Origin: an uncultured Methanosarcinaceae archaeon
GTDB lineage: Archaea > Halobacteriota > Methanosarcinia > Methanosarcinales > Methanosarcinaceae
Direction of reading: 5' to 3'
Assembly (NCBI GenBank): GCA_963847185.1
Contig: CAWJYV010000010.1
Span: 192,001 to 256,000 of the forward strand
DNA length: 64,000 nt
Positions 1-53,287 of this stretch are shown here, piece after piece (within the stretch, counting starts at the first letter, position 1; every line of letters starts with the position of its first letter). The position numbers and the translations under genes are program-made. Under the pieces are notes generated by a model, which had not been told where the DNA came from, ran no database searches, and saw only the letters and a program-made list of their open reading frames with translations.

Positions 1-880
1 CCTGCAGTACAGCGCAGCCCGGCTCTTCATGATGGGTGCAGTCTTTGAACCGACAGTTGCAGGCTTCGTTAGTGATATCGGGAAAAGCTTTTTCGAGGCC
101 GTCTGCGGAATCTCCTAGCTGGATTTCCCTTATCCCTGGGTTGTCTATAAGAATTGCGCCATTTGGAAGCAGGAACATCTGACGGACTGTAGTTGTATGT
201 CGCCCTCTCTCGTCGTCTTCTCGGACATCCGCTGTTTTCTGAACGGCTTCATCAAGTAAAGCGTTGATGAGTGTGGATTTTCCGACGCCTGAGGAACCTA
301 CGAATATCGCTGTTTTCCCAGGGTTGAGATAAGGACTGAGTGCAGAAAGCCCGGTTTTTGAAAGGGCACTTAGGGGAATGACCGGCACGTCCCCTGCAAC
401 AGGTTGTATTTTTTCTACCAGACATGTTGGGTTATCAGTAAGGTCGGTCTTGTTCAGTAAAATTACCGGGCTTGCTCCCGAAGAATACACAACTGTAAGA
501 TATCTCTCAAGCCTTCTCAGATTCAGGTCTTTTCCTGCCGAGGTTACAATAAAGATGGTATCAATATTTGCAGCAATTAACTGCTCCTCGTTTCCATCCC
601 CTGGAGCTCCTCTTGAAAGGCAGCTTTTTCTGGGCAAGATATTTACAATCATGCGTGAGCCCGATTCCGGCTGATTAAGTAAAACGACAAAGTCCCCTAC
701 AACCGGCTGCTTACCAATTCTTCGGAGTGCCCCGGAAATTCCTGCCTGTACTACAGCTCCCGGAATAAGAATCTCACAGACGGTTTTATGCCGGGATGCC
801 ACTCTTCCTGCCAGATAGGGACCTTTATAGGCAGAAAATGCCGATTCTAGCTCTTCATTCCATCCTGGAAGCACATTCAT
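1..880 (-). CDS. rsgA: Ribosome small subunit-dependent GTPase A (3' end beyond window)
   Basis: Manual translation from ATG at 880: [12 protein letters not shown]...QPVVGDFV...AANID...LLNKTD...[12 protein letters not shown]...GRHTT...IDNPGIRE...[14 protein letters not shown]; circularly permuted GTPase motifs and Zn finger; absent from the ORF track. Confidence 0.93.
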
Positions 881-1034
881 TAGTAATGACCTCAACTTTT
901 CATATCAAAGGAAATCTATTGGAAAATCTATTGAATATACATGTCAACTTTGAATGAATAAGTATTTTGGTAATTATCTTTCATCGGCACGAGTTCGCCA
1001 GGCCGATTACAACTGAAGCACAGATGAAACATTC

Positions 1035-2012
1035 GACATCATATGCGATCCTGCATGCGGAACAGCCGGATTCCTTGTATGTGCAGGCGAACACCTGCGT
1101 GAACACTACCCTGATATCCTGCACGACGAAAAGCTGAGACAGCACTTCCACCACGGCATGTTCCACGGTTTTGATTTCGATAACGTCATGCTCCGCATAG
1201 GCAGTATGAATATGCTCCTGCACGGCGTGGAAAACCCCGATATCCGCTACCGCGATTCCCTGGCGCAGGAGAACGCCAGCGACGAAGAAGCCTACACCCT
1301 GGTGCTTGCCAATCCTCCATTTGCAGGCTCGCTTGACTACGAAAATACTGCAAAAGACCTTCTTCAGATCGTCAAGACCAAGAAAACAGAGCTGCTTTTC
1401 CTTGCCCTTTTCATGCGCCTGCTGAAGCCAGGCGGACGGGCTGCCGTTATCGTTCCTGACGGCGTACTTTTCGGCTCAAGCAAAGCCCACAAGGAGCTTC
1501 GCCGCATGCTTGTCGAAGAACAGAAGCTTGACGCCATTGTTTCACTCCCAGGCGGCGTTTTCAAACCCTATGCCGGCGTTTCCACAGCCATTCTCCTTTT
1601 CACAAAAACAAATTCTGGAGGCACAGACCATGTCTGGTTCTACGATGTTCAGGCCGACGGCTGGAGCCTTGACGATAAGCGCAATCCTCTCCTGAGCGAG
1701 GACAAACTGGGCCCTGTTCCCTCAACCGAGCTTAACGAAGACGAGCACGCGAAAAACAACCTTCCTGATGTCCTTTCTCGCTGGCAGGAGCGCAATTCCA
1801 GTGAACTCTCCCGCCCCCGCACAGAACAGAGTTTCTGCGTGCCAAAAGCCGACATCGCATCCCAGGGCTACGACCTTTCCCTCAACCGCTACAAAGAAGT
1901 CGTGCATGAAGAAGTGGAACACAGGCCCCCGAAAGAAATACTCGCAAGCCTCGCAAAACTGGAAGCCGAAATCCAGCAGGAGATGGCAGAACTGGAAGGG
2001 ATGCTGAAGTGA
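1035..2012 (+). pseudogene. hsdM: Type I R-M methyltransferase subunit, 5'-truncated
   Basis: Motif I ([12 protein letters not shown]) lies in frame at ~1041-1076, upstream of the first ATG (1158); motif IV LANPPF present; in-frame TGA at 1014-1016 and no N-terminal domain. Confidence 0.75.
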
Positions 2013-3187
2013 TTTCACAAAGTACTTTCGGTGACGTCTATCCAATCAAACGTCTTGGCGAAATTGTTGAATTTCTTGATAGCAAACGTCGACCTGTTAC
2101 TGAATCTGATCGTCGTACTGGACCTTATCCTTACTATGGAGCAAATGGTCAGCAAGGTACAATTGACGATTACATATTCGATGAGCCTCTTGTCTTGCTT
2201 GCTGAAGATGGAGGTCATTTCGCAACACCTGAACGAGGGATCTCCTATTTAATTTCAGGAAAAACTTGGGTAAATAACCATGCTCATGTCCTGAGACCGA
2301 AAGCTGAAATAGATATTGTATTTCTCTGTCGCGTTCTTGAACACTATGATGTCACGCCATTTGTCACTGGTACAACTCGCGGGAAGTTAACCAAATCAGG
2401 AGCTTCGGAGATTCTGATTCCAGTTCCTCCGATGGAGGAACAAAAAAGAATTGCAGACATTCTGGACCGTGCGGAGGCTCTGCGAGCCAAGCGCAGAGCC
2501 TCCCTCGCTCAGCTAGATGAATTAGTTCAGTCTATTTTTGTTGAGATGTTTGGTGATCCTGCCACAAATCTAAAAAGATGGAAAACAAAGCCGCTTCGCG
2601 AGTTGGTAAGTGAGTTCCGTTATGGAACCTCAAATAAATCGCAAGCTGAGGGAAAGACTACTTTGAGAATTCCAAATGTTATAGGCGGGGTCATTGATTA
2701 TTCAGATCTAAAGTTTGTTCCAGTTGATGCCGCTGAGTTTGAGAGGTTGAAGCTTGTTGATGGTGATATACTGTTTGTCCGCACAAACGGGAATCCCGAT
2801 TTTGTTGGTCGTTGCGCTGTGTTCGACAGAGGCATTGCATTAAAGGCTGGTTATGTTGGTGATGAATTTATTTTTGCCTCTTATCTCATTCGTGCACGAA
2901 TCCAAACAGATCAGATTATTCCGATCTTCCTGCGTGAATTCATGCTTGGAAACGGAGGTAGACGAGAGCTACGTTCTCGATGTAAAACATCAGCAGGGCA
3001 GTTTAACATCAATACTGAGAATCTCGGAGCAATTGCTATTCCTATACCACCCCTTCCCATTCAGAAAGAGTTTGCCTGCCGTTTAGTAGCTATTGATAAA
3101 CTAAAAGAAACGCACAAAGCCTCACTGGCAGAGTTGGATGAGCTTTTTGCCTCTCTCCAGTATCGAGCTTTCAGAGGGGAACCGTGA
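2009..3187 (+). CDS. hsdS: Type I R-M specificity subunit
   Basis: Two TRD/conserved-region units ([29 protein letters not shown]); GTG start overlaps the hsdM stop. Confidence 0.95.
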
Positions 3188-3231
3188 ATGACCCTCTCAG
3201 CCCATGAAACGAATCTCAACGGAGCCGATTT

Positions 3232-6200
3232 ATGACTAATTTCGCCTTTCTCGAAGCCGAATGGCCTTCTTTGTATGAGGCAGCCATTAAAGCCTCAAAT
3301 GCAGTCCATCCTGACCCGCGTACTGCCTGTTTTTACGCAAGGAGAGCGCTGGAGCTTGCTGTGCAGTGGGTATATAAGCACGATTATACTTTGCTCCTGC
3401 CGTATCAGGATAATTTGAGTGCTCTTATTCATGAGCCTACATTCAAGAAAACTGCGGGAGAGGCGGTTTTCAACAAAGCACGAGTCATTATCCGGCTTGG
3501 AAATGAGGCTGTGCACAGCAACAGTACAATTCTGGAATATGATTCATTGACGGCTGTCCGTGAGCTTTTCCACATAAACTACTGGCTGGCCCGCACCTAT
3601 GCAAGGCAGGAGAAGCCTGAATCTGGGCTGAGTTTTGATCCGGAGGAACTGCCAGAAACAACTGTCCCGAAGCAGACGATAGAGCAGCTTCAGAAACTTG
3701 AAGCCAGCCTTCAGGAAAAGGACGAAAAACTCTCGGAGCTTCTGGCCGACAAATCCTCTCTGGACGAAGAACTTAAACGCCTGCGGGCCGAGGTTGCAAA
3801 GGCAAAAGAAGCTTCAGCCTTACAGCCGGACACACACGATTATTCCGAAGCTGAAACCCGCGACTACTTCATTGATCTTCTGCTTAAAGAAGCCGGCTGG
3901 GTTCTGGACAAAGTTCAGGATCGGGAATTTGAAGTCTCAGGCATGCCAAACGACAAAGGGATTGGCTTTGTAGACTACGTACTCTGGGGAGACGACGGCA
4001 GGCCTCTTGCGCTGGTCGAAGCAAAAAGAACAAAACGTGATCCTCGGGTTGGCCAGCAGCAGGCAAAACTCTATGCCGACTGCCTCGAAAAACAATTCGG
4101 GCAAAGGCCTTTGATTTTCTACTCAAACGGCTACGAGCACTGGATCTGGGATGATAACAACTATCCTCCAAGGCAGGTTCAGGGCTTCTACAAAAAAGCC
4201 GAACTTGAACTGCTCGTCCAGAGGAGGAGTACTCGAAAACCTCTTGCTGAAGCTGATATTAACTCAAAAATAGCCGGCCGCCACTATCAGACCCGTGCCA
4301 TCCGCCGCATTGCAGAATCCTTTGAAAAAGACAGCAGCCGGAAAGCTCTGGTAGTAATGGCAACAGGCGCAGGCAAGACGCGAACCGTAATTGCACTCTG
4401 CAACCTGTTAATGCGCTGCAACTGGGCAAAACGGGTGCTCTTCCTGGCTGACCGCGTGGCTCTTGTAAAACAGGCGGTAAACGCCTTCAAGCAGAATCTG
4501 CCCGATTCTTCACCTGTGAACCTTGTCACGGAAAAAGATACGGAAGGTAGAGTATTCGTTTCTACCTATCCGACAATGATGAAACAGATAGACGAAATAA
4601 ACAATGGGCAGAGGCGCTTTGGAGCTGGACATTTTGACCTTGTAATCATCGACGAAGCCCATAGATCCGTCTTCAAGAAATACCGTGCCATTTTTGAATA
4701 CTTCGATTCCCTGCTTGTAGGACTTACAGCGACGCCCAAAGACGAAATTGAAAGGAATACCTATCGCCTCTTTGACCTAGAAAACGGCGTGCCTACAGAC
4801 GCTTATTCTCTGGACGAAGCGATAAAGGACGGATTTCTTGTTCCTTTAAAAGCAGTATCAGTGCCCCTAAAATTCCAGCGTGAGGGGATTAATTACGATG
4901 AGCTTCCTGACGATGAAAAGGATCAGTGGGATTCTCTTGAGTGGGATGAAGAAGGAGAAGTTCCTGACCGGATAGAAGCCGAAGCTGTCAACAAATGGCT
5001 CTTCAACAAAGATACTGTCGATAAAGTGCTTGAACATATGATGATCCGGGGGCAGAAAGTTGCTGGAGGTGACCGTCTGGGCAAAACTATCGTCTTTGCA
5101 AAAAATCAGGCTCATGCTGAGTTCATTGCTGAAAGATTCAACATCAACTACCCTCATTTCAAAGGCGAATTCGCCAGAGTTATCACTTTCAAAACCGAGT
5201 ACGCTCAGGACCTTATAGACAAATTCTCAGACAAAGAAAAAGCTCCCTATGTCGCCATCTCAGTTGACATGCTCGATACGGGCATAGACGTACCGGAAGT
5301 CCTGAACCTTGTTTTCTTCAAACTGGTGCGTTCTAAAACAAAGTTCTGGCAAATGATAGGACGTGGTACCCGCCTCTGTCCCGACCTGCTTGGACCAGAG
5401 CAGGATAAAGAGTTCTTTTATCTCTTTGATTACTGCCAGAACCTTGAATTCTTCAGCCAGAACCTCGAAACTGTCGATGGCGCCCTTGCGGAATCACTCG
5501 GTACCCGCCTTTTCAAAACCAGGCTTGAATTAATCTCTGAACTTGACAGGAAACTCGATGCTGGCGCTGAATGCCATATAGGCAGGGACCCAAAGGAAAT
5601 TTACGGAGAACCGGCAACAGAAGCCGAAGTTCGCTTCTCGTTTGCCATAATGCTCAACAGAGAAGTTGCTTCCATGAACCTGGATAACTTTATCGTACGA
5701 CCAAAGAGGAAGCTCATAGAAAAATACTCAAAACACGATACATGGATCAGGTTGTCTAGCGAAGAACTGGCTGAACTGGCCCACGAAGTCGCAGGTCTAC
5801 CATCAGAACTGGAACCGGAAGCAGAAGAAACGAAACGTTTTGATTATCTGATACTGAATATTCAGCTGGCTTTACTGCGTTCCGAACCCTCCTATGAGCG
5901 TCGGATTAACCAGGTAAAGGATATTGCCGGCCTCCTTGAAGAAAAATCAGCCATTCCGATGGTACGCGACCAGATGCTACTGATTCAGGACGTGCAAACT
6001 GATGAGTGGTGGCAGGATGTCACAATTCCAATGCTGGAATCTCTTCGAAAATGTCTGCGTCTCCTTGTAAAACTGATCGAAAAACAAAAAAGGAAGCCTA
6101 TATACACCGATTTTGAAGATGAAATTGGCAGTGAAATAGACGTAGAGTTGCCAATCTTCGCTGGAGCTGGGGATTTTGAGAAATTCCGCATGAAAACCAG

Positions 6201-6669
6201 GACCTATCTTCTTCAGCATCAGGACAACATAGTTATCCACAAGCTTCGGATGAATATAGCATTGGCCTCATCCGACCTTGATGAGCTCGAAAAAATGCTT
6301 TCCGAAAGCGGTGTAGGAAAACCTGAAGATATAATTCGTGCTAAAGAGGAATCAAAAGGTTTAGGCCTGTTTGTACGTTCCCTGGTGGGGCTTGATCGTG
6401 AAGCTGCAAAACAGTCGCTTGCTACATTCATATCAGGCAAAACCCTAACAGGAAACCAGATCGATTTCATAGACATGATTATAAACCACCTTACCGAACA
6501 TGGAGCAATGGATGCGGCTTTGCTGTACGAATCTCCATTTACTGACCTTACACCACAGGGTCCTGATGGACTTTTCACCTCGGCTCAGGTGGATGAGTTA
6601 ATAACAGCACTGGAACAGATAACAGCAGCAGCATTTGTGTCCCCCGGTTCGCAGCAGATTATTGCATAA
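3232..6669 (+). CDS. hsdR: Type I R-M restriction subunit (EcoAI/EcoEI-like DEAD-box translocase)
   Basis: VDYVL..VEAKR nuclease motif, MATGAGKT, IIDEAH, GLTATP, QMIGRGTR helicase motifs. Confidence 0.95.
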   Translation: MTNFAFLEAEWPSLYEAAIKASNAVHPDPRTACFYARRALELAVQWVYKHDYTLLLPYQDNLSALIHEPTFKKTAGEAVFNKARVIIRLGNEAVHSNSTILEYDSLTAVRELFHINYWLARTYARQEKPESGLSFDPEELPETTVPKQTIEQLQKLEASLQEKDEKLSELLADKSSLDEELKRLRAEVAKAKEASALQPDTHDYSEAETRDYFIDLLLKEAGWVLDKVQDREFEVSGMPNDKGIGFVDYVLWGDDGRPLALVEAKRTKRDPRVGQQQAKLYADCLEKQFGQRPLIFYSNGYEHWIWDDNNYPPRQVQGFYKKAELELLVQRRSTRKPLAEADINSKIAGRHYQTRAIRRIAESFEKDSSRKALVVMATGAGKTRTVIALCNLLMRCNWAKRVLFLADRVALVKQAVNAFKQNLPDSSPVNLVTEKDTEGRVFVSTYPTMMKQIDEINNGQRRFGAGHFDLVIIDEAHRSVFKKYRAIFEYFDSLLVGLTATPKDEIERNTYRLFDLENGVPTDAYSLDEAIKDGFLVPLKAVSVPLKFQREGINYDELPDDEKDQWDSLEWDEEGEVPDRIEAEAVNKWLFNKDTVDKVLEHMMIRGQKVAGGDRLGKTIVFAKNQAHAEFIAERFNINYPHFKGEFARVITFKTEYAQDLIDKFSDKEKAPYVAISVDMLDTGIDVPEVLNLVFFKLVRSKTKFWQMIGRGTRLCPDLLGPEQDKEFFYLFDYCQNLEFFSQNLETVDGALAESLGTRLFKTRLELISELDRKLDAGAECHIGRDPKEIYGEPATEAEVRFSFAIMLNREVASMNLDNFIVRPKRKLIEKYSKHDTWIRLSSEELAELAHEVAGLPSELEPEAEETKRFDYLILNIQLALLRSEPSYERRINQVKDIAGLLEEKSAIPMVRDQMLLIQDVQTDEWWQDVTIPMLESLRKCLRLLVKLIEKQKRKPIYTDFEDEIGSEIDVELPIFAGAGDFEKFRMKTRTYLLQHQDNIVIHKLRMNIALASSDLDELEKMLSESGVGKPEDIIRAKEESKGLGLFVRSLVGLDREAAKQSLATFISGKTLTGNQIDFIDMIINHLTEHGAMDAALLYESPFTDLTPQGPDGLFTSAQVDELITALEQITAAAFVSPGSQQIIA

Positions 6670-6843
6670 GAAATTTAGAAATAATAGGTTGCTCATTCAC
6701 ATTTTTATTGCACTTTATTGTCACCTCATAGTGGTGGCAATTTAATGAGTAAATTGTCTACTTAGTGATATGAAAGTTAACTATTGTTTCAACTTATTCT
6801 GAAAATCACTCTTTCGACTGTATTTTTTCCTTTTTTGTGGAGG

Positions 6844-46567: not shown

Positions 46568-47398
46568 TTACTTTTTGATCAGGTCAAAAACCCACCTGCT
46601 AATGCCTGGAGCGACGTTTCCGCTGCGTCTGTAAAGTTCCACATCAAGCCCCATTTTTTTGTACTCAGTAATCAGCCCTGGAATCTGGGATTCAGCCTTG
46701 AAGGTGTAGAAATGAACGTATCCATCTTTTCTGACAAGTTTTGAGATTTCATAAAGGAAATGATCCATGCCATAAGGTGTAGGCACAATGGCTCTGTCAA
46801 ACCCATTTTCAGGAACCTGGAGGTTATTAATCTGGGAGATCTCCTCAAAATCTCCCTGAATAACCTTTACTTGCCTTTCAAGCCTGTTGATTCGAAGATT
46901 TTCCTGCAAGTAGGTGCAGGCGTCGGGATTTATTTCGACAGCATACACTTTTGCACCTTTTCCTGCAGCAGGAAGCACAAAAGGGCCTACTCCAGCAAAA
47001 GGAATTATGATGCATTCCCCAGGTGTAATTTTTGAGATAACTCTTTTTCTTTCTGTATACAGACGAGGATTAAAAAAGACTTTTTTTACATCAAGTTTGT
47101 AGGCATAGCCGTTTTCCCTGTGAATGGTTTCTGCAGATTCTCCGAGCAGAAGTTCAAAATCAGCAACTCTATGCTCTCCTTCAAGCTTACTCACCTTATT
47201 AAGTACAGCCCGCGTGTTTCCTCTCATTGAAAACAGTTTTGAGGCAATAACCTCTTTATAAGCCGAAAGTTCTGCAGGAATGGAGATTACTGCCACATCT
47301 CCCACATAATCAAAACGTTTTGGCACCATATGAAGCAGAGGTTCCTCAATTATTCCTCTCATCTCGTCTCGTAAACTCACCCTGTTTCGAAAACTCAT
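46568..47398 (-). CDS. Trm5/Tyw2-family SAM-dependent tRNA-modifying transferase
   Basis: HRENG, FNPRL.TER, FAGVGPF, EINP. Confidence 0.85.
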   Translation of the reverse strand: MSFRNRVSLRDEMRGIIEEPLLHMVPKRFDYVGDVAVISIPAELSAYKEVIASKLFSMRGNTRAVLNKVSKLEGEHRVADFELLLGESAETIHRENGYAYKLDVKKVFFNPRLYTERKRVISKITPGECIIIPFAGVGPFVLPAAGKGAKVYAVEINPDACTYLQENLRINRLERQVKVIQGDFEEISQINNLQVPENGFDRAIVPTPYGMDHFLYEISKLVRKDGYVHFYTFKAESQIPGLITEYKKMGLDVELYRRSGNVAPGISRWVFDLIKK

Positions 47399-47552
47399 TC
47401 AGAATACCTCTGCCTGTCGAACCATAGGCTTTTCAGGATAAATTTTTCAGGATTCTTTTCAGAATATGTTTCGGATAAATTTTCCAGCTTTGCTTTTCAG
47501 GAGTTATTCTAATATATCTTTTTTGTTATAGAAATATAAAATACGGGAAAGA

Positions 47553-47618
47553 AGTAAAGTACAGGGAAATAGGAAATAAAGTACAGGGAAATAAAGTACA
47601 GGGAAATAAAGTACAGGA
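47553..47618. repeat. 15-bp tandem repeat (AAATAAAGTACAGGG), ~4 copies
   Basis: Visible directly in the intergenic region. Confidence 0.85.
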
Positions 47619-47683
47619 ACAGCGGGAAAAATAAAACCAGAAAATTCTCAAAAACATTTCTGGATTATACAGGATTAATTTCA

Positions 47684-48091
47684 ATGAAAATTATTATAGA
47701 GACTCCAAAATACAGTTTTTGGAAGTATTGCAGAACAGAAAAGGGCTATGAAAGATCTTTCTTTTCCCCTCTGCCTGCAATTTTCAATTACGGCTTCATA
47801 GAAGGGACAGAAAGCCCTGACGGAATGGAGGAAGATGTGGTCGTACTCGGACCTCGCCTGCCTAGAGGAAGTACGCTTGAAAGGGAAGATTTTGATGGAA
47901 TAGTAAAGTTCCTGGACGATTCTGTTCGGGACGATAAGAAAGTGGTGTATATCAGCGGGTTTTCTTCTCCTTTTTTGCTTGCTTATTATTTCAGAATTTA
48001 TGCTCTTTTTAAAATCTTCCTCTATGCATGTCGCAAAAGAAAAATCACAGCATGTAAGTTTGAAGGAATTGTGCTAAGAAAATCGCGCTAA
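47684..48091 (+). CDS. Short inorganic pyrophosphatase-family protein
   Basis: IIETPK, NYGFI.GT..PDG...D, DDKK. Confidence 0.75.
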   Translation: MKIIIETPKYSFWKYCRTEKGYERSFFSPLPAIFNYGFIEGTESPDGMEEDVVVLGPRLPRGSTLEREDFDGIVKFLDDSVRDDKKVVYISGFSSPFLLAYYFRIYALFKIFLYACRKRKITACKFEGIVLRKSR

Positions 48092-48208
48092 CAGGTTTCT
48101 AAAAACGCTGAAAAATTATCAGATTCTCTAACCTTTTATTTCTTCTGATAAAACAAGTTAGAAAACTACTAATAATTTAAAGAAGCTTAAAAAAAAGGTG
48201 CTTTTAAC

Positions 48209-49351
48209 ATGCCTTTTCATGTAATGCTGATCCCGACCCTTGGCTGCCCTGCTAATTGCAGTTATTGCTGGAGTTCCGAAGAGAAATCCCCGATAATGAG
48301 TATGGAAACCATAAAAGAAGTGGTTGAATGGCTTAAAGGTTTCAGGGGAGATTCGGTTACTTTTACTTTTCATGGTGGGGAACCTCTTCTGGCAGGTGCG
48401 GATTTTTACAGGGAAGCATTACCTCTACTGGCTGAAAGCTTAAACTCCAGGAGAATAGCCTTTGCGATACAGACCAACCTCTGGAAACTTACTCCCGAAA
48501 TAGCCGAGATTTTTGCCGAATACAATATTCCTATAGGTTCCAGTCTGGACGGCCCGCAGGAACTCAATGACCTGCAGCGGGGAAAAGGTTACTATGAAAA
48601 AACCATGAGAGGACATGAAATTGCCAGGGCTCACGGGCTTGATGTGAGATTCATTACCACTTTTACTTCCTATTCTGTAAAGTTCAGGGAGGAGATTTTC
48701 AATTTTTATCTTGAAAAAGGCTTTACTCTTAAGTTGCACCCCTGCCTGCCTTCTATAAAAGGGGAAAACCCCGAAAAATGGACCCTTTCTCCGGAAGAAT
48801 ACGGAGAACTTTTAATTTATCTTCTGGATAAGTATCTGGAGAACATTGGCAGAATTGAAGTTATGAATATTGATCACCTCTGCAAATGCGTTTTCACAGG
48901 CAGGGGTACTGTCTGTACCTATGTTGACTGCATGGGAGACACATTTGCAGTCGGCCCTGATGGAAGCATATACCCTTGCTATCGCTTTGTGGGCATGCCA
49001 GAATACGTTATGGGAAATGTTTATGACCACCCTACCATGGCAGACCTTGCCCAGTCAGATGCCTGGAAGCTCATGCACAGGTTTAAAGAATATGTGGACA
49101 CAGCATGCGGCAAATGCGCCCATATCAAATACTGCAGAGGCGGCTGTCCTTACAATGCAATAGTTCCTACAAACGGTGAAATAAAAGGTGTAGATCCGCA
49201 CTGCATTGCTTATAAGATAATTTTTGATGAGATAAACAACAGGGTCAACGAGGAAATGTTTGGTTCCTCTGGTATGATGAATATGTTCCAGCCTCAGTCT
49301 ATGGAGCCTTCAAGATCGGGCATAATGTCTCTAATGCTTAAAAAGATCTAA
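48209..49351 (+). CDS. Peptide-modifying-type radical SAM/SPASM enzyme (methanogen TIGR04083-like)
   Basis: CPANCSYC, FHGGEP, SLDG, IYPC..F, CGKC..IKYCRGGC. Confidence 0.88.
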   Translation: MPFHVMLIPTLGCPANCSYCWSSEEKSPIMSMETIKEVVEWLKGFRGDSVTFTFHGGEPLLAGADFYREALPLLAESLNSRRIAFAIQTNLWKLTPEIAEIFAEYNIPIGSSLDGPQELNDLQRGKGYYEKTMRGHEIARAHGLDVRFITTFTSYSVKFREEIFNFYLEKGFTLKLHPCLPSIKGENPEKWTLSPEEYGELLIYLLDKYLENIGRIEVMNIDHLCKCVFTGRGTVCTYVDCMGDTFAVGPDGSIYPCYRFVGMPEYVMGNVYDHPTMADLAQSDAWKLMHRFKEYVDTACGKCAHIKYCRGGCPYNAIVPTNGEIKGVDPHCIAYKIIFDEINNRVNEEMFGSSGMMNMFQPQSMEPSRSGIMSLMLKKI

Positions 49352-49446
49352 AACAGGTTATGTAGCAAATATCTGAAAGCGGGTTAATACTGAAAATTCA
49401 TGAATTAATCAAGCTTTTAATTATCTGGTAATCATACTTTAGCCGT

Positions 49447-49553
49447 GGGTATGAGTTATTGATCAAGTCCGTAAAGCGAGTATATCTACTGCATATTGGG
49501 GAAATGTAGGGAGATTCCTGTGCTTTCAGTTTTCAATAACTCACCCTACTACC
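49447..49553. repeat. ~105-bp dispersed element with terminal IR, copy 1
   Basis: TGAGTTATTGA (49452) / TCAATAACTCA (49543); homologous to 59362-59470. Confidence 0.8.
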
Positions 49554-49716
49554 TCAAATTTCTTGTGCAATATATTGAGAATGCACTAAAAATGCCTTAT
49601 TTTGTATTTAATCGAAACCTCTTTATTCTTGAGTTGCATAAATAGGATAGTGGATTCCGGTTTGTTTGTAAATCAAATAAATAATTATCGGAGATCTTGT
49701 GATCTGGAAGGTTTGT

Positions 49717-49827
49717 ATGGACCATGATGACTTGATACAGCAAAACAGAATAATGAACAAAGTAATGATCTGTACTTTCGGTGTACTGCTTACTTTGTTG
49801 GCGCTAATCGGTTTGTATGGTGTCTGA
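49717..49827 (+). CDS. Unannotated 36-aa single-TM microprotein
   Basis: MDHDDLIQQNRIMNKVMICTFGVLLTLLALIGLYGV; GGAAGGT SD-like motif immediately upstream. Confidence 0.65.
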   Translation: MDHDDLIQQNRIMNKVMICTFGVLLTLLALIGLYGV

Positions 49828-50064
49828 ACTTTATCTTTTAAAGGTTAGAGTTCAGGAGAATGCGGCAATTTAATCGGAAGAATTGCAGGCTTCTCATAAC
49901 CCTGACTTTTCGTAAAGCGCAAATGAAATAAGAGTTTATTTTGGACAAGGAACCGGATTTTTCTTTATGGTTCCAGTTGTTACCTGAAGTTCCCTGGGAC
50001 CTCAGGAAGCCCGGAGTTTTCGGGTTTTCCGCAGGTCTTACAGGAAGGAACATTTCCAGCTTAT

Positions 50065-50284
50065 TGGCCAGCCCGGCAGTGGACGTTGTGGAAAAAATGG
50101 CTGGCTAAAAGAGTGGAAAATAACAACTTCTTAAGTACAATCTCCAGTTTCTTGGCTGGCCCGGCAGAGGACGTTGTGGAAAAAATGGCTGGCTAAAGGA
50201 ACGGAACATAATAACTCATCAACTGCAATATTCAACTCATTAGCCAGCCCGGCAGAGGACGTTGTGGAAAAAAATGGCTGGTTA
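50065..50284 (+). repeat. Three tandem stem-loop units, 88-bp period (candidate ncRNA array)
   Basis: Units at 50065, 50153 and 50241: T(G/A)GC(CA/TG)GCC-CGGCAG(T/A)GGACGTTGTGGAAAAAAT-GGCTGG(C/T)TA. Confidence 0.9.
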
Positions 50285-50554
50285 AAAGAGCGAATATAAT
50301 TTTCTACACTTTATACCAGGTTCTGAAAAAGGCTCCGGAAAGGAGCTTATAAAAGAGGGTTTTAAAATCCTGGAAAAAGGTGTTAAGGACAGGAAGAGAA
50401 CAGGGAGTGTGAACCCTAAAAGAGTAATCGTTGAGACGGCCCTGGGTGATGAGAACAGAGGAGATGAGATCTCCTTTTTTCAAGTTTCAGGGTCACTTTT
50501 TTAAACCAATTTATTTAGGTTCAAGTTTGAGCTTAAAATCTGGTGGCAAAATTA

Positions 50555-50684
50555 TTTTTTTTCAGAAAACCAATTTTATTCTCAAATCAGTAAATATTCA
50601 TAACTATTTTTGTGGTCAGAAACTATATTGATTATTCGGAATACGGGATTTAGAGAAGCGATTTTGAGTTTCGGGATCGACTCT
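50555..50684. mobile_element. MITE-like element, diverged copy
   Basis: Aligns by eye with 53896-54028; right end TTTTGAGTTTCGGGATCGACTC. Confidence 0.55.
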
Positions 50685-50812
50685 TAGAGTAAGATTATCT
50701 TACAATATAGGTAATACTATCTCATAATTCGCGTGAGATTATTTTACAATTCAAGTAAGATTATTTTATGATTTAGGTGAAGTATCTCACAATTGAGATT
50801 GGGTGAAATATT

Positions 50813-51442
50813 TTGAAACCTGGAGCAATGTTGGTCTGGAAGGAAACAAAAGGATACTGTAAATTGAGAAGGAGTAGTCTTTTATTTCTTTCTTTACTTG
50901 CAGGCCGGGTTGCAGCAAAAATTCTTGACCTCTGTGCTCTTCCTGAGATCATGGATTTACTATGGCAGATAATTAAATTCAATACCCGACACCTCACTCC
51001 AATAGAGGAACAGGAAGCTAGAAGCGTATTTGGAGAGAGTATCAATTATTCAAAAATACGTATCGATGAACATTCGCTCATTGCCTGGATAGGAGCAAAA
51101 ATAAACAAGTGTTCGAGTATGGGTGTTACCACTTTCCATACAATTAATTTTAATCAAAAAATCAGGACTGAAACCGGAAACCAAGATATGAAATGGCTTA
51201 TTCACGAGTTAACCCATATTGCTCAAATGGAGAGGTCAGGTTCGAAATACTTTGTTGAATCACTTTATGCACAGGCAACTGAAGGATATGCATACAAGCC
51301 TGGATCCAGACATCATTTGCGTGAGTATAACCGAGAGCAACAGGCATCCCTTATTGCAGATTATTATTTTACACTTATTTCAGGAAGCTCGACTGCAATT
51401 TATGATAGCTATATCGCAGAACTGAAAGCTGGAGAATTATGA
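50813..51442 (+). CDS. HExxH zincin-like protein (DUF4157-like)
   Basis: RHLTPIE..ARSVFG.SINYSKIRI, LIHELTHIAQ, YNREQQA. Confidence 0.75.
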   Translation: MKPGAMLVWKETKGYCKLRRSSLLFLSLLAGRVAAKILDLCALPEIMDLLWQIIKFNTRHLTPIEEQEARSVFGESINYSKIRIDEHSLIAWIGAKINKCSSMGVTTFHTINFNQKIRTETGNQDMKWLIHELTHIAQMERSGSKYFVESLYAQATEGYAYKPGSRHHLREYNREQQASLIADYYFTLISGSSTAIYDSYIAELKAGEL

Positions 51443-51532
51443 GATGTAGAGGATAAATATAAAATAAAGCCACAATTTACTGATAATCTCAAACAATTCA
51501 ATTCATTCATTTCATCCTTTTATTATTTTATT

Positions 51533-52156
51533 TTACCTTTTTATTATTTTCATTACCTCAGCAAGATCCTCAGCAATCATCTCTCGTTTTGATTTCTCGA
51601 TCAGGTAATTCTGCCCAGTCTGCACGTATGAAGGAAAAACTCGCTTGCCCTGATAATAAAATTCATTCTTCCTGATTTTGTATGTAGAGCCGGCTGGAAT
51701 AACGTTTTTGCCGCTCTGCCGCTTGCTGATATAGTTAAAAGCCTTTATCGCAACATCTCCCATTAACAGGTAAACCTCAAGATTCGGAAAGAGAGCAAGT
51801 TCTTTTTCCAGCATAAAAGAACAATTCTTGATTGTTACAGCCGAAACCCCGTATTGAATCTTTGCACATTTTACCGCAGTCGTCAGGTAGAATCCAAGGT
51901 CAAGAATTTCCTGCATGCTGCTCACTGAAACTCCTGCGTCATTGAAAGCCTGAAGAGTTGTTTTCAGGTAAAAAGATTCTTCAGCCCCATAGAAGTAATC
52001 TTTCCGATCCTCAGGCGGAGCTTCGGAAATCATGACTGTTTTGATCTTCTCAGGCTGTATGTCCACAGCAGGTACAAAATATCCTCTTTTGTTTATGTCG
52101 GAACAGGGAAAGTCCTTACATTCAATGTACTCAGAAGGTTTCATTTTGAGACTCAC
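51533..52156 (-). CDS. Uracil-DNA glycosylase-like family protein
   Basis: MISEAPP, TTAVKC, LLMGDVA motifs. Confidence 0.75.
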   Translation of the reverse strand: MSLKMKPSEYIECKDFPCSDINKRGYFVPAVDIQPEKIKTVMISEAPPEDRKDYFYGAEESFYLKTTLQAFNDAGVSVSSMQEILDLGFYLTTAVKCAKIQYGVSAVTIKNCSFMLEKELALFPNLEVYLLMGDVAIKAFNYISKRQSGKNVIPAGSTYKIRKNEFYYQGKRVFPSYVQTGQNYLIEKSKREMIAEDLAEVMKIIKR

Positions 52157-52482
52157 CTTAATTTGACTCCAGCTTACAGGGAATGATTTTTACAGATAAA
52201 TTTGTTATGTTATTTATCCTGAAAAAATTAAAAGATATGTACAAAAATATTCACAAAAGATACATACAAAAGATATGGGCAAATTCAATTCTAAAACTGG
52301 CGAGTAAAAAAGAATAGGCACAAAAGCAGACCAGCTCGAATAGCTCAAAAATTAGACTTGTTTTCTCTTTCTGAGCAATCTGTATCCTCTGTAACAAGGC
52401 AACAGGGAGAAAACAGCCATAACAAGACACAATCTGGCTGATAATATTGACCGCAGCTGTCCTGCAGACTGTTTGTTTAGCG

Positions 52483-52833
52483 TTAACACACTCCCAGGCC
52501 TTTGAGAAGCTGCTTTAAATCCGCCTTTGAGCTCTCAACAAAGACTCCCCTTGTTCCTGAAATTATTATGGTCCAATCGCCGCCGCTGTACATCCAGTTA
52601 TGCTGAGGTACCCAGTTCATTTTGTAGAGCTCAGTATAAGCGCTAGCCAGAGCATCGAACATCATGTTCACGGCTCCGCAGAATTTAGCGGTCATCCGTG
52701 CCATCTCTTCCGGCATCTCACCTTTTGATTTGTAATCCACAAGTTTTCCTTCGGAACTGAAAATTCCGGCTGCCATTACCCCATCAAATTTCAGAAGCTC
52801 ATCTAAAGATAAATTACATTCCTGTCTGTTCAA
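52483..52833 (-). CDS. DUF2173 family protein
   Basis: LDELLKFDGVMAAG.F..GKL..Y; W.P..W.YSGGD. Confidence 0.75.
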   Translation of the reverse strand: MNRQECNLSLDELLKFDGVMAAGIFSSEGKLVDYKSKGEMPEEMARMTAKFCGAVNMMFDALASAYTELYKMNWVPQHNWMYSGGDWTIIISGTRGVFVESSKADLKQLLKGLGVC

Positions 52834-53287
52834 ACCCTAACCCCCCAAATAAGTTAATAATTTCTGGAAATATCCGGAACTGAAGCTTGCAAAGCTTGAG
52901 GGCTTCATGTAAAATTCCCAATATATCCACAGGTTCACAGGCTTTTTTCGTTGTCTGTGTATAAATTGTATTGAGATAATATTATATAAATATATCAAAT
53001 TAAAAGGGGGGAATCGAGTCATATATTAGAAGACCAGTTTTTAGTACCGTAAAAATTTGCAAAACCAGAGATAGAGTCAGTCCACCACTCTGGTATATCT
53101 ACCATTCACTTACTATTGTCCTCTCACCATGTTATTTTAATTGTATAATACTCCTCACCATCATTTGTTCACCAGTATTCGCTTACCAGTCTATTTCACC
53201 AGCACCCGCTCACTGCTATTACTGCATATACGAGAAAATTACAGTATGCACAAAGCTATTATAAAGTCTGACTTACACTAAAATCTC

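Follow-up and report, generated by a model that had tools for sequence, protein, structure and literature searches.

The tandem stem-loop array found in the window (the whole 64,000-nucleotide stretch of DNA that has been analysed) is a lineage-specific tripling of a single hairpin, here designated H1, and forms part of a module of about 0.85 kb (49638-50503). The module is a real, conserved and probably expressed structured RNA, which would add a previously undescribed case to the dual-function or small regulatory RNAs of archaea. In the preferred reading, to which a probability of roughly 55% is assigned, it is a dual-function RNA in which the mRNA of a microprotein is joined to a regulatory 3' domain presenting repeated loops. 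To our knowledge, only a small number of regulatory RNAs have been understood in archaea, where Methanosarcina serves as their main model. At this locus, a conserved RNA of about 0.8 kb without an Rfam match combines a clear domain structure with a linked, unannotated, putatively membrane-bound microprotein; the natural copy-number series of H1 (1, 2, 3) provides a ready-made test of whether valency matters.

The tandem array and the H1 hairpin

Tandem Repeats Finder places the array at 50055-50300, with a period of 88, 2.8 copies, 81% matches and a score of 308. The 23-nt loop motif CGGCAGNGGACGTTGTGGAAAAA has three matches in the 64-kb window, all on the + strand (50074, 50162 and 50250) and spaced by exactly 88 bp, with 0 mismatches among the copies; it appeared in 0 of 100 shuffled windows and nowhere else in the 4.04-Mb genome, where the H1 locus is single. 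The mean column identity of the three units is 87%; the linkers diverge more than the loop and the 3' stem, both of which hardly vary. The motif matches and the three-unit alignment thereby confirm a sequence-only reading of this DNA, which had described three stem-loops at an 88-bp period with a near-invariant loop of about 25 nt and more divergent linkers; the stem sequences of the units are also as given there. Its 10-bp stem corresponds to the inner part of the helix and is correct as such, but the helix is longer, since outer 5-bp and middle 3-bp helices extend it to 18 pairs.

The same reading had excluded a CRISPR array, and this holds because the linkers between the units are homologous to each other. 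Both kinds of array consist of regularly spaced repeats with a palindromic core. In contrast to CRISPR, however, the H1 “spacers” are homologous, there are only three units here and one in most relatives, and the repeat lies within a presumed ORF-bearing transcript; Tandem Repeats Finder takes the whole 88-bp unit as the period, not a repeat with unrelated spacers.

The stem substitutions identify the strand on which the structure is formed. Unit 2 carries a C to T and an A to G change and unit 3 a C to T change in its 3' arm, all giving U-G or G-U pairs on the + strand, while the same three substitutions read on the - strand are A-C mismatches, as had been claimed. The + strand of the 271-nt stretch folds at -79.5 kcal/mol (z = -2.84; 1 of 200 shuffles as good), compared with -60.1 kcal/mol for the - strand (z = -0.10; 97 of 200 shuffles as good).

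A covariance model, R1, has been built from 10 units with a helix of 18 pairs (outer 5, middle 3, inner 10), to which 28 units from 21 loci were realigned. In this alignment, 92.3% of the cells pair and 13 of the 18 pairs have changed on both sides; the alignment was fitted to the model, which favours the latter, and the margin is large. In 500 shuffles, not one of the five measures was attained, and shifting the 3' partners by 1-3 columns lowers pairing to 26-61%. Compensatory changes occur even between the three units of the window, for instance in unit 3 (C-G to U-A and U-A to A-U). G-U and U-G pairs are frequent in H1 (for instance 16 G-U at one pair, 7 U-G at another), a pattern compatible with the + strand alone. 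The loop of about 25 nt is almost invariant over both genera in which H1 occurs, whereas the stems vary. The claim of a structured + strand RNA is thus well founded on the folding z-scores, the G-U pairs and the strong covariation.

The absence of a described family, also supposed in the sequence-only reading, was checked against Rfam 15: cmscan at E <= 10 over 47000-53000 gave eight chance-level matches, none of them over 50051-50301, and the best reached 22 bits against a cut-off of 100 bits.

Distribution and copy number among relatives

The element was present in 23 of the 177 family genomes that were searched at the DNA level, with 15 of the 58 other genomes of the same genus, five of the six of the sister genus, and two weak matches in other genera. 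These weak BLAST matches (genera g13 and g14) were dropped, as the covariance model at E <= 1 gave no confirmation. H1 is present in three copies in three genomes (the window's own, G160 and G148), in two copies in G162 and in one copy at the other 17 loci. The duplication junctions are alike in the four multi-copy genomes, therefore a single origin of the amplification is inferred. The array had earlier been treated as the basic entity; this view is not supported, because 17 of the 21 loci are single-copy and the hairpin itself makes up a single domain within a conserved RNA of far greater length.

With the 881-nt module as DNA query, matches were obtained in 39 of the 177 family genomes. The 5' part (promoter and ORF) is more widely distributed than H1, being present in 29 of 58 genomes of the genus and in 6 of 6 of the sister genus. 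Some genomes possess the ORF and the upstream hairpin H0 without H1, and some of these have a second paralogous ORF downstream.

Organization of the conserved module

Alignment of the surroundings of the 17 single-copy loci revealed conservation over about 800 nt, from promoter to terminator, with H1 in the 3' part of the module. The elements identified are collected in Table 1.

Table 1. Elements of the module in the window, in order of position
Feature	Position	Strand	Remarks
TATA-like box ATAAATAG	49638..49645	+	nearly invariant in alignments of related loci; putative promoter element
Operator-like box GGATAGTGGATTCCGGT (GGAT-N6-TTCC)	49645..49661	+	between the TATA-like box and the RNA 5' end
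Stretch covered by RNA contigs	49667..50399	+	four metatranscriptome libraries, three studies
ORF of the microprotein (36 aa with ATG as start, 42 aa with the GTG at 49699)	49717..49827	+	21/21 H1 loci
Hairpin H0 (GGAACC ... GGTTCC), U-rich loop	49949..49974	+	kept in all aligned loci, including those without H1
H1 unit 1	50051..50124	+	R1 match of 98.7 bits; 18-bp interrupted helix, 26-nt apical loop
H1 unit 2	50139..50212	+	R1 match of 86.8 bits
H1 unit 3	50227..50301	+	R1 match of 86.9 bits
H2 remnant, outer stem CCAGG ... CCTGG retained, loop motif gone	50316..50373	+	compared with relatives
Most conserved block of the module (ACAGGGAGTGTGAACCCT AAAAGAGTAATCGTTGAGA ...; AGGGAGTGTGAACC..AAAAGAGTAATCG)	50400..50445	+	alignment of 19 loci
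Long hairpin at the end of the module (GGCCCTGG ... TTCAGGGTC) with a T-run behind it at 50497-50502	50438..50503	+	RNAalifold consensus of 19 loci; putative terminator

H0 shows compensatory variants in relatives (GGAGCCG/CGGCTCC and GGAATC/GATTCC), and further inverted repeats are located 3' of it. In the terminal hairpin, RNAalifold on the 19 loci indicates a change from C-G to U-A at pair 63-118 in four sequences; this structure encloses a smaller GGAGATC/GATCTCC hairpin with its own T-run (50460-50480). The alignment revealed no conserved A/T-rich TATA-like box between the ORF (or H0) and H1. A scan for bacterial promoters and terminators was set aside as inapplicable to archaea.

In most single-copy relatives, the H2 loop carries GAAGAYGTTGTGG, with the same core as H1. 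All four multi-copy loci (L001-L004) have a degenerate form of this motif, which is also degenerate or missing in the single-copy loci L007-L009, L015 and L022. Because some single-copy genomes also lack the H2 motif, compensation of its decay by H1 amplification is no more than a suggestion, and the idea that two or more loop motifs have to be maintained is weak.

The microprotein gene

The microprotein ORF lies upstream of H1 on the same strand in 21 of 21 H1 loci, with H1 300-420 nt downstream; with tblastn alone, it was recovered at 16 of 24 loci. The encoded product has an N-terminus rich in Q, N, K and M and a C-terminal hydrophobic stretch, MICTFGVLLTLLALIGLYGV, which is predicted to be a membrane helix. 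Pairwise differences over the 21 C-terminal codons amount to 1429, 620 and 1837 at positions 1, 2 and 3, respectively, and this substitution pattern looks like that of a coding sequence. No Pfam family was found for the microprotein. In a collection of 5.8 billion proteins, the window microprotein matches only itself, and the query from a relative matches three unnamed metagenome proteins.

In several relatives, a second paralogous small membrane ORF (e.g. MQQNNVIIGTYGLLFTLVLIIAFLLL) with a copy of the promoter and 5' leader is located behind the module, at about 2073-2200 in L005, at about 1515-1650 in L007 and about 650 nt downstream of the first ORF in L049-L051, which makes the microprotein part of a small family of genes arranged in tandem. 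In L006 (G120), the N-terminal hexapeptide IQHNKM is present in three tandem copies, compared with one in relatives.

Presence of the module in RNA libraries

Six RNA libraries hold part of the stretch, of which four, from three studies, have been compared against 49300-50800. The runs were chosen for holding this stretch, and their contigs carry neither strand nor single-transcript information. The first bases of the contigs are at 49667, 49674, 49693 and 49699, and no loose ends occur at those points. The TATA-like box lies 22-29 nt upstream of the starts at 49667 and 49674, and 22-29 nt between such a box and the RNA 5' boundary is the usual archaeal spacing. One contig of 522 nt covers 49667-50188 and leads through the ORF into unit 2, and others bridge 49957-50156. 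None of the four libraries has contigs over 49300-49656 or 50422-50800, which is a weak hint only, as contigs drop rare molecules. In two runs of one study, the contigs stop at 50399 and then run into adapter letters, which suggests that the RNA often ends near 50396-50399, directly ahead of the most conserved block in the 3' part. Summed k-mer depth is higher over the hairpins than over the ORF in all four libraries, a value inflated by repeats and relatives. The module is present in RNA libraries and is probably expressed.

The promoter region and possible nitrogen control

The box GGATAGTGGATTCCGGT agrees at 13 of 17 positions with the nifH box GGTTACCGGCTTCCGGT of the same genome, which lies downstream of the nifH TATA region and precedes nifH at the same distance; this similarity was picked after looking, and the left half of the module box departs from the nifH palindrome. 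Among 3000 random 450-nt windows, nine reach 13 of 17 positions against the nifH box. The pattern GG.TA..GG.TTCCGG has three matches in 4.04 Mb, namely nifH, the module site and one intragenic site. An equal agreement of 13 of 17 positions was found with GGATAGAGGATACCTAT, upstream of a P-II gene that adjoins an amtB-like gene on contig C8. Six relatives (L047-L052) have in the same place a perfect GGAA-N6-TTCC, which is described as the consensus of the NrpR operator (PMC2723118). Among the NrpR targets in M. mazei are nifH, glnK1-amtB1 and glnA1 (PMC11456600).

The putative promoter of the module looks like the promoters of the nitrogen regulon. Given the likeness of its operator-like box to the boxes of the nifH and P-II promoters, we infer that the module would be repressed by NrpR and induced under nitrogen limitation. 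Nitrogen control is plausible on this comparison, at somewhat below even odds. As a separate observation, the glutamine synthetase gene (G000 C8:324976-325977) has GGTAAATGATTACC (GGTA-N6-TACC) about 366 nt upstream of the Pfam match; GGTA-N6-TACC is the form given for the potential NrpRI operator of sRNA154 (PMC3177094).

Proposed organization and alternative explanations

In the preferred reading, the three stem-loops would be tandem copies of the H1 domain, situated 3' in a conserved + strand transcript about 0.75-0.85 kb long, found in Methanosarcina and one sister genus and probably starting at about 49667. The 5' part of this transcript would encode the 36-aa membrane microprotein, and the 3' part would be a structured non-coding domain, in which H0, H1 and H2 are followed by a conserved block that is single-stranded and by a terminator hairpin. 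One single-stranded motif, AGARGAYGUUGUDGAA, would be presented by both H1 and H2 to a common partner, and in the window lineage H1 would have been raised to three copies and the H2 motif lost. Co-transcription of the ORF with the hairpins is thus presumed, as is the binding of a partner in trans by the loops. With regard to dual function, a conserved ORF with a coding-like pattern, a covarying 3' domain and one contig bridging both, the last being evidence from a contig only, have been found. A more far-reaching version, rather unlikely as it stands, considers the nitrogen-controlled microprotein RNA as an archaeal counterpart of RNAIII or CsrB, whose identical purine-rich loops sequester an RNA-binding protein or drive RNA-RNA self-association, the loop number being tuned by tandem duplication from one to three copies between sister species.

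The main alternatives concern the relationship of the hairpins to the ORF. They may form a small-RNA gene or cassette in their own right, transcribed from a separate promoter, processed into pieces of about 88 nt and only adjacent to the ORF, an option already named in the sequence-only reading; from the contigs, no cutting into 88-nt units is apparent. The higher, albeit inflated, k-mer depth over the hairpins would fit such a gene, as would the genomes that have the ORF and H0 without H1; moreover, a short ORF mRNA could terminate at H0 and its U-rich loop, in which case H1 would be reached by read-through only. However, the alignment shows no conserved TATA-like box from which a separate gene could start between H0 and H1, the 522-nt contig and the other bridging contigs span the gap, and H1 always keeps the same strand and a similar distance from the ORF. 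An independent gene is accordingly regarded as improbable. Alternatively, the hairpins, which occupy the 3' region of what is presumed to be one transcript with the ORF, may act in cis on the microprotein mRNA, through its stability, processing or translation control or through loop-loop kissing by GACGUU, with no partner in trans. The invariant core GACGUU is self-complementary, the GAYGUU of H2 can pair with it, and H1 is amplified where the H2 motif has been lost. Nevertheless, a 6-nt quasi-palindrome in a 25-nt loop is by estimate expected by chance in most loops, the approximately 19 invariant loop positions far exceed the need of a kissing hexamer, inspection of the 5' UTR and ORF revealed no loop complement, and the loci L015 and L022 have one H1 without H2. 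Action in cis alone is therefore considered unlikely.

A DNA-level repeat, such as iterons or the relic of a mobile element, or a repeated coding sequence, in either case without an RNA-structure function, is very improbable. Although the flanking genes vary between lineages and open frames pass through the units, including 36- and 41-aa ORFs at 50086 and 50174, this explanation is largely refuted by the covariation, as the compensatory changes and G-U pairs are specific to + strand RNA. The period of 88 is not a multiple of 3, and in most relatives the loop reads TTGTAG, which places a stop directly after the would-be start codon. A mobile-element origin has been rejected, since the locus, single in its genome, matched nothing in plasmid or phage collections.

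Search for a partner of the loop

Under the dual-function reading, the loop would have a partner in trans, and candidate sites were sought in the genome. Target prediction with the loop gave no target supported by the genome, rRNA-operon or nitrogen-regulon scans. Apart from its A/T-rich end, the loop has no perfect complement of at least 13 nt in the genome outside the antisense strand of the element itself. The wobble-tolerant scan of the genome gave 2187 12-mers compared with 796-6735 for ten shuffled loops, hence no enrichment, and perfect complements were not enriched over shuffled loops either; the longest wobble match (C7:362146) lies inside a longer gene in another frame and was rejected. 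An 11-mer complement in three paralogous STT3-like genes on C8 is inside the coding sequence and attributed to chance. These genes (G000 C8:818900-825400) are three tandem paralogues encoding STT3/AglB-like membrane proteins, at a spacing of about 3 kb.

The best duplex in the rRNA operon (-27.6 kcal/mol) was also discarded; it lies beyond the 3' end of the 5S rRNA and antisense to an ORF of 120 aa, and only one of the two operon copies compared has it (L059, not L060). The best candidate was a site in an amtB-like gene, CCCCACAACGTTACTCTGACC (-26.5 kcal/mol), rejected because it is not kept in other H1-bearing genomes; among 16 loci, amtB orthologues pair at -7.5 to -19.9 kcal/mol in genomes with H1 and at -8.0 to -16.6 kcal/mol in those without it. 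The only other good hairpin with the loop motif in the genome (C1:233180) lies inside a methyltransferase-like ORF, where it encodes EDVVE, and is considered a coincidence. The length and invariance of the loop, together with the missing conserved complement, slightly favour a protein or RNP as partner; the H1-H2 loop differences, mostly transitions (four transitions, two transversions), slightly favour base pairing.

Comparison with known regulatory systems

The closest comparison is sRNA154 of M. mazei, which is controlled by NrpR and involved in nitrogen fixation. It is described as an intergenic RNA conserved in Methanosarcina and predicted to act via two conserved loops (PMC5867862), with a potential NrpR operator and a length of about 130 nt (PMC3177094), and as carrying a small ORF (PMC11456600). 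As far as the cited texts describe it, sRNA154 thus shares with the module the genus, conserved loops and a small ORF, and its reported potential NrpR operator would have a counterpart in the operator-like box, but it differs in length (about 130 nt as opposed to about 0.8 kb), locus and sequence. In the M. mazei-like genomes G118 and G120, the site of the published sRNA154 qRT-PCR primer is 9.4-9.5 kb away from H1; in G115 the distance is 28 kb, and in the window genome the primer maps to another contig. Identity with sRNA154 has been rejected on these grounds. If the nitrogen link is true, the module would be a second dual-function RNA, beside sRNA154, in methanogen nitrogen control. No description of the module or of H1 was found in the literature texts searched, and an orthologue may already be among the approximately 250 M. 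mazei small-RNA candidates.

Staphylococcus aureus RNAIII reportedly encodes a small membrane-active peptide in its 5' part and has 3' hairpins that share one loop motif; its loops are said to be C-rich and to pair with ribosome-binding sites. The layout is alike by analogy only, since RNAIII is bacterial, its loops are C-rich in contrast to the purine-rich loops found here, and there is no sequence relation. The CsrB/RsmZ sponges also consist of repeated hairpins with GGA in the loop and vary in copy number between lineages, and each H1 loop holds GAGGAC or GTGGAC. This resemblance is superficial, as CsrB/RsmZ loops are short ANGGA loops whereas those of H1 have about 25 nt, with a 19-nt conserved motif, in only one to three copies. 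CsrA (PF02599) gave 0 matches in the 99.8%-complete genome G000, in a search whose positive controls matched in 3 of 14 genomes; membership among the Csr-type sponges was rejected, the CsrA/RsmA partner being absent from the genome. Type I toxin-antitoxin systems (hok/sok-like) likewise combine a gene for a small hydrophobic peptide with a long structured untranslated region, and tandem paralogous small ORFs add to the likeness in some relatives of the module. In contrast to these systems, the conserved RNA of the module is on the same strand and downstream, and no antisense or divergent small RNA was identified; the contigs are unstranded.

Neighbouring genes

The sequence-only reading had proposed that the array could form one system with the upstream microprotein and/or the downstream HExxH protein (50813-51442). 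The first part is upheld by the constant presence of the ORF at the H1 loci; the second is not, as tblastn matched the HExxH protein in 1 of 24 loci, the window's own, and did not detect it even in the 96%-identical relative L002. A radical-SAM gene is common only to L002 and the window locus, and the flanking protein genes vary between lineages. Since neither neighbour is conserved, a functional link of H1 to the HExxH or radical-SAM gene has been rejected.

Against Pfam, the five nearest ORFs correspond to radical SAM/SPASM, a pyrophosphatase, UDG and a weak eCIS_core, with none for the small ORF. The eCIS_core match (PF13699) belongs to the HExxH protein and, at 18.2 bits, stays below the threshold of 22. 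A 22-bp tandem repeat at 50688-50768 (3.7 copies, consensus AGTAAGATTATCTTACAATTCA), immediately 5' of the HExxH gene and with a short inverted repeat in each unit, could represent a set of regulator-binding sites. A small - strand ORF (47526..47684) reads CTLFPCTLFPCTLFP in translation, pointing to a 15-bp tandem repeat at about 47540-47620, in the intergenic region upstream of the pyrophosphatase-like gene.
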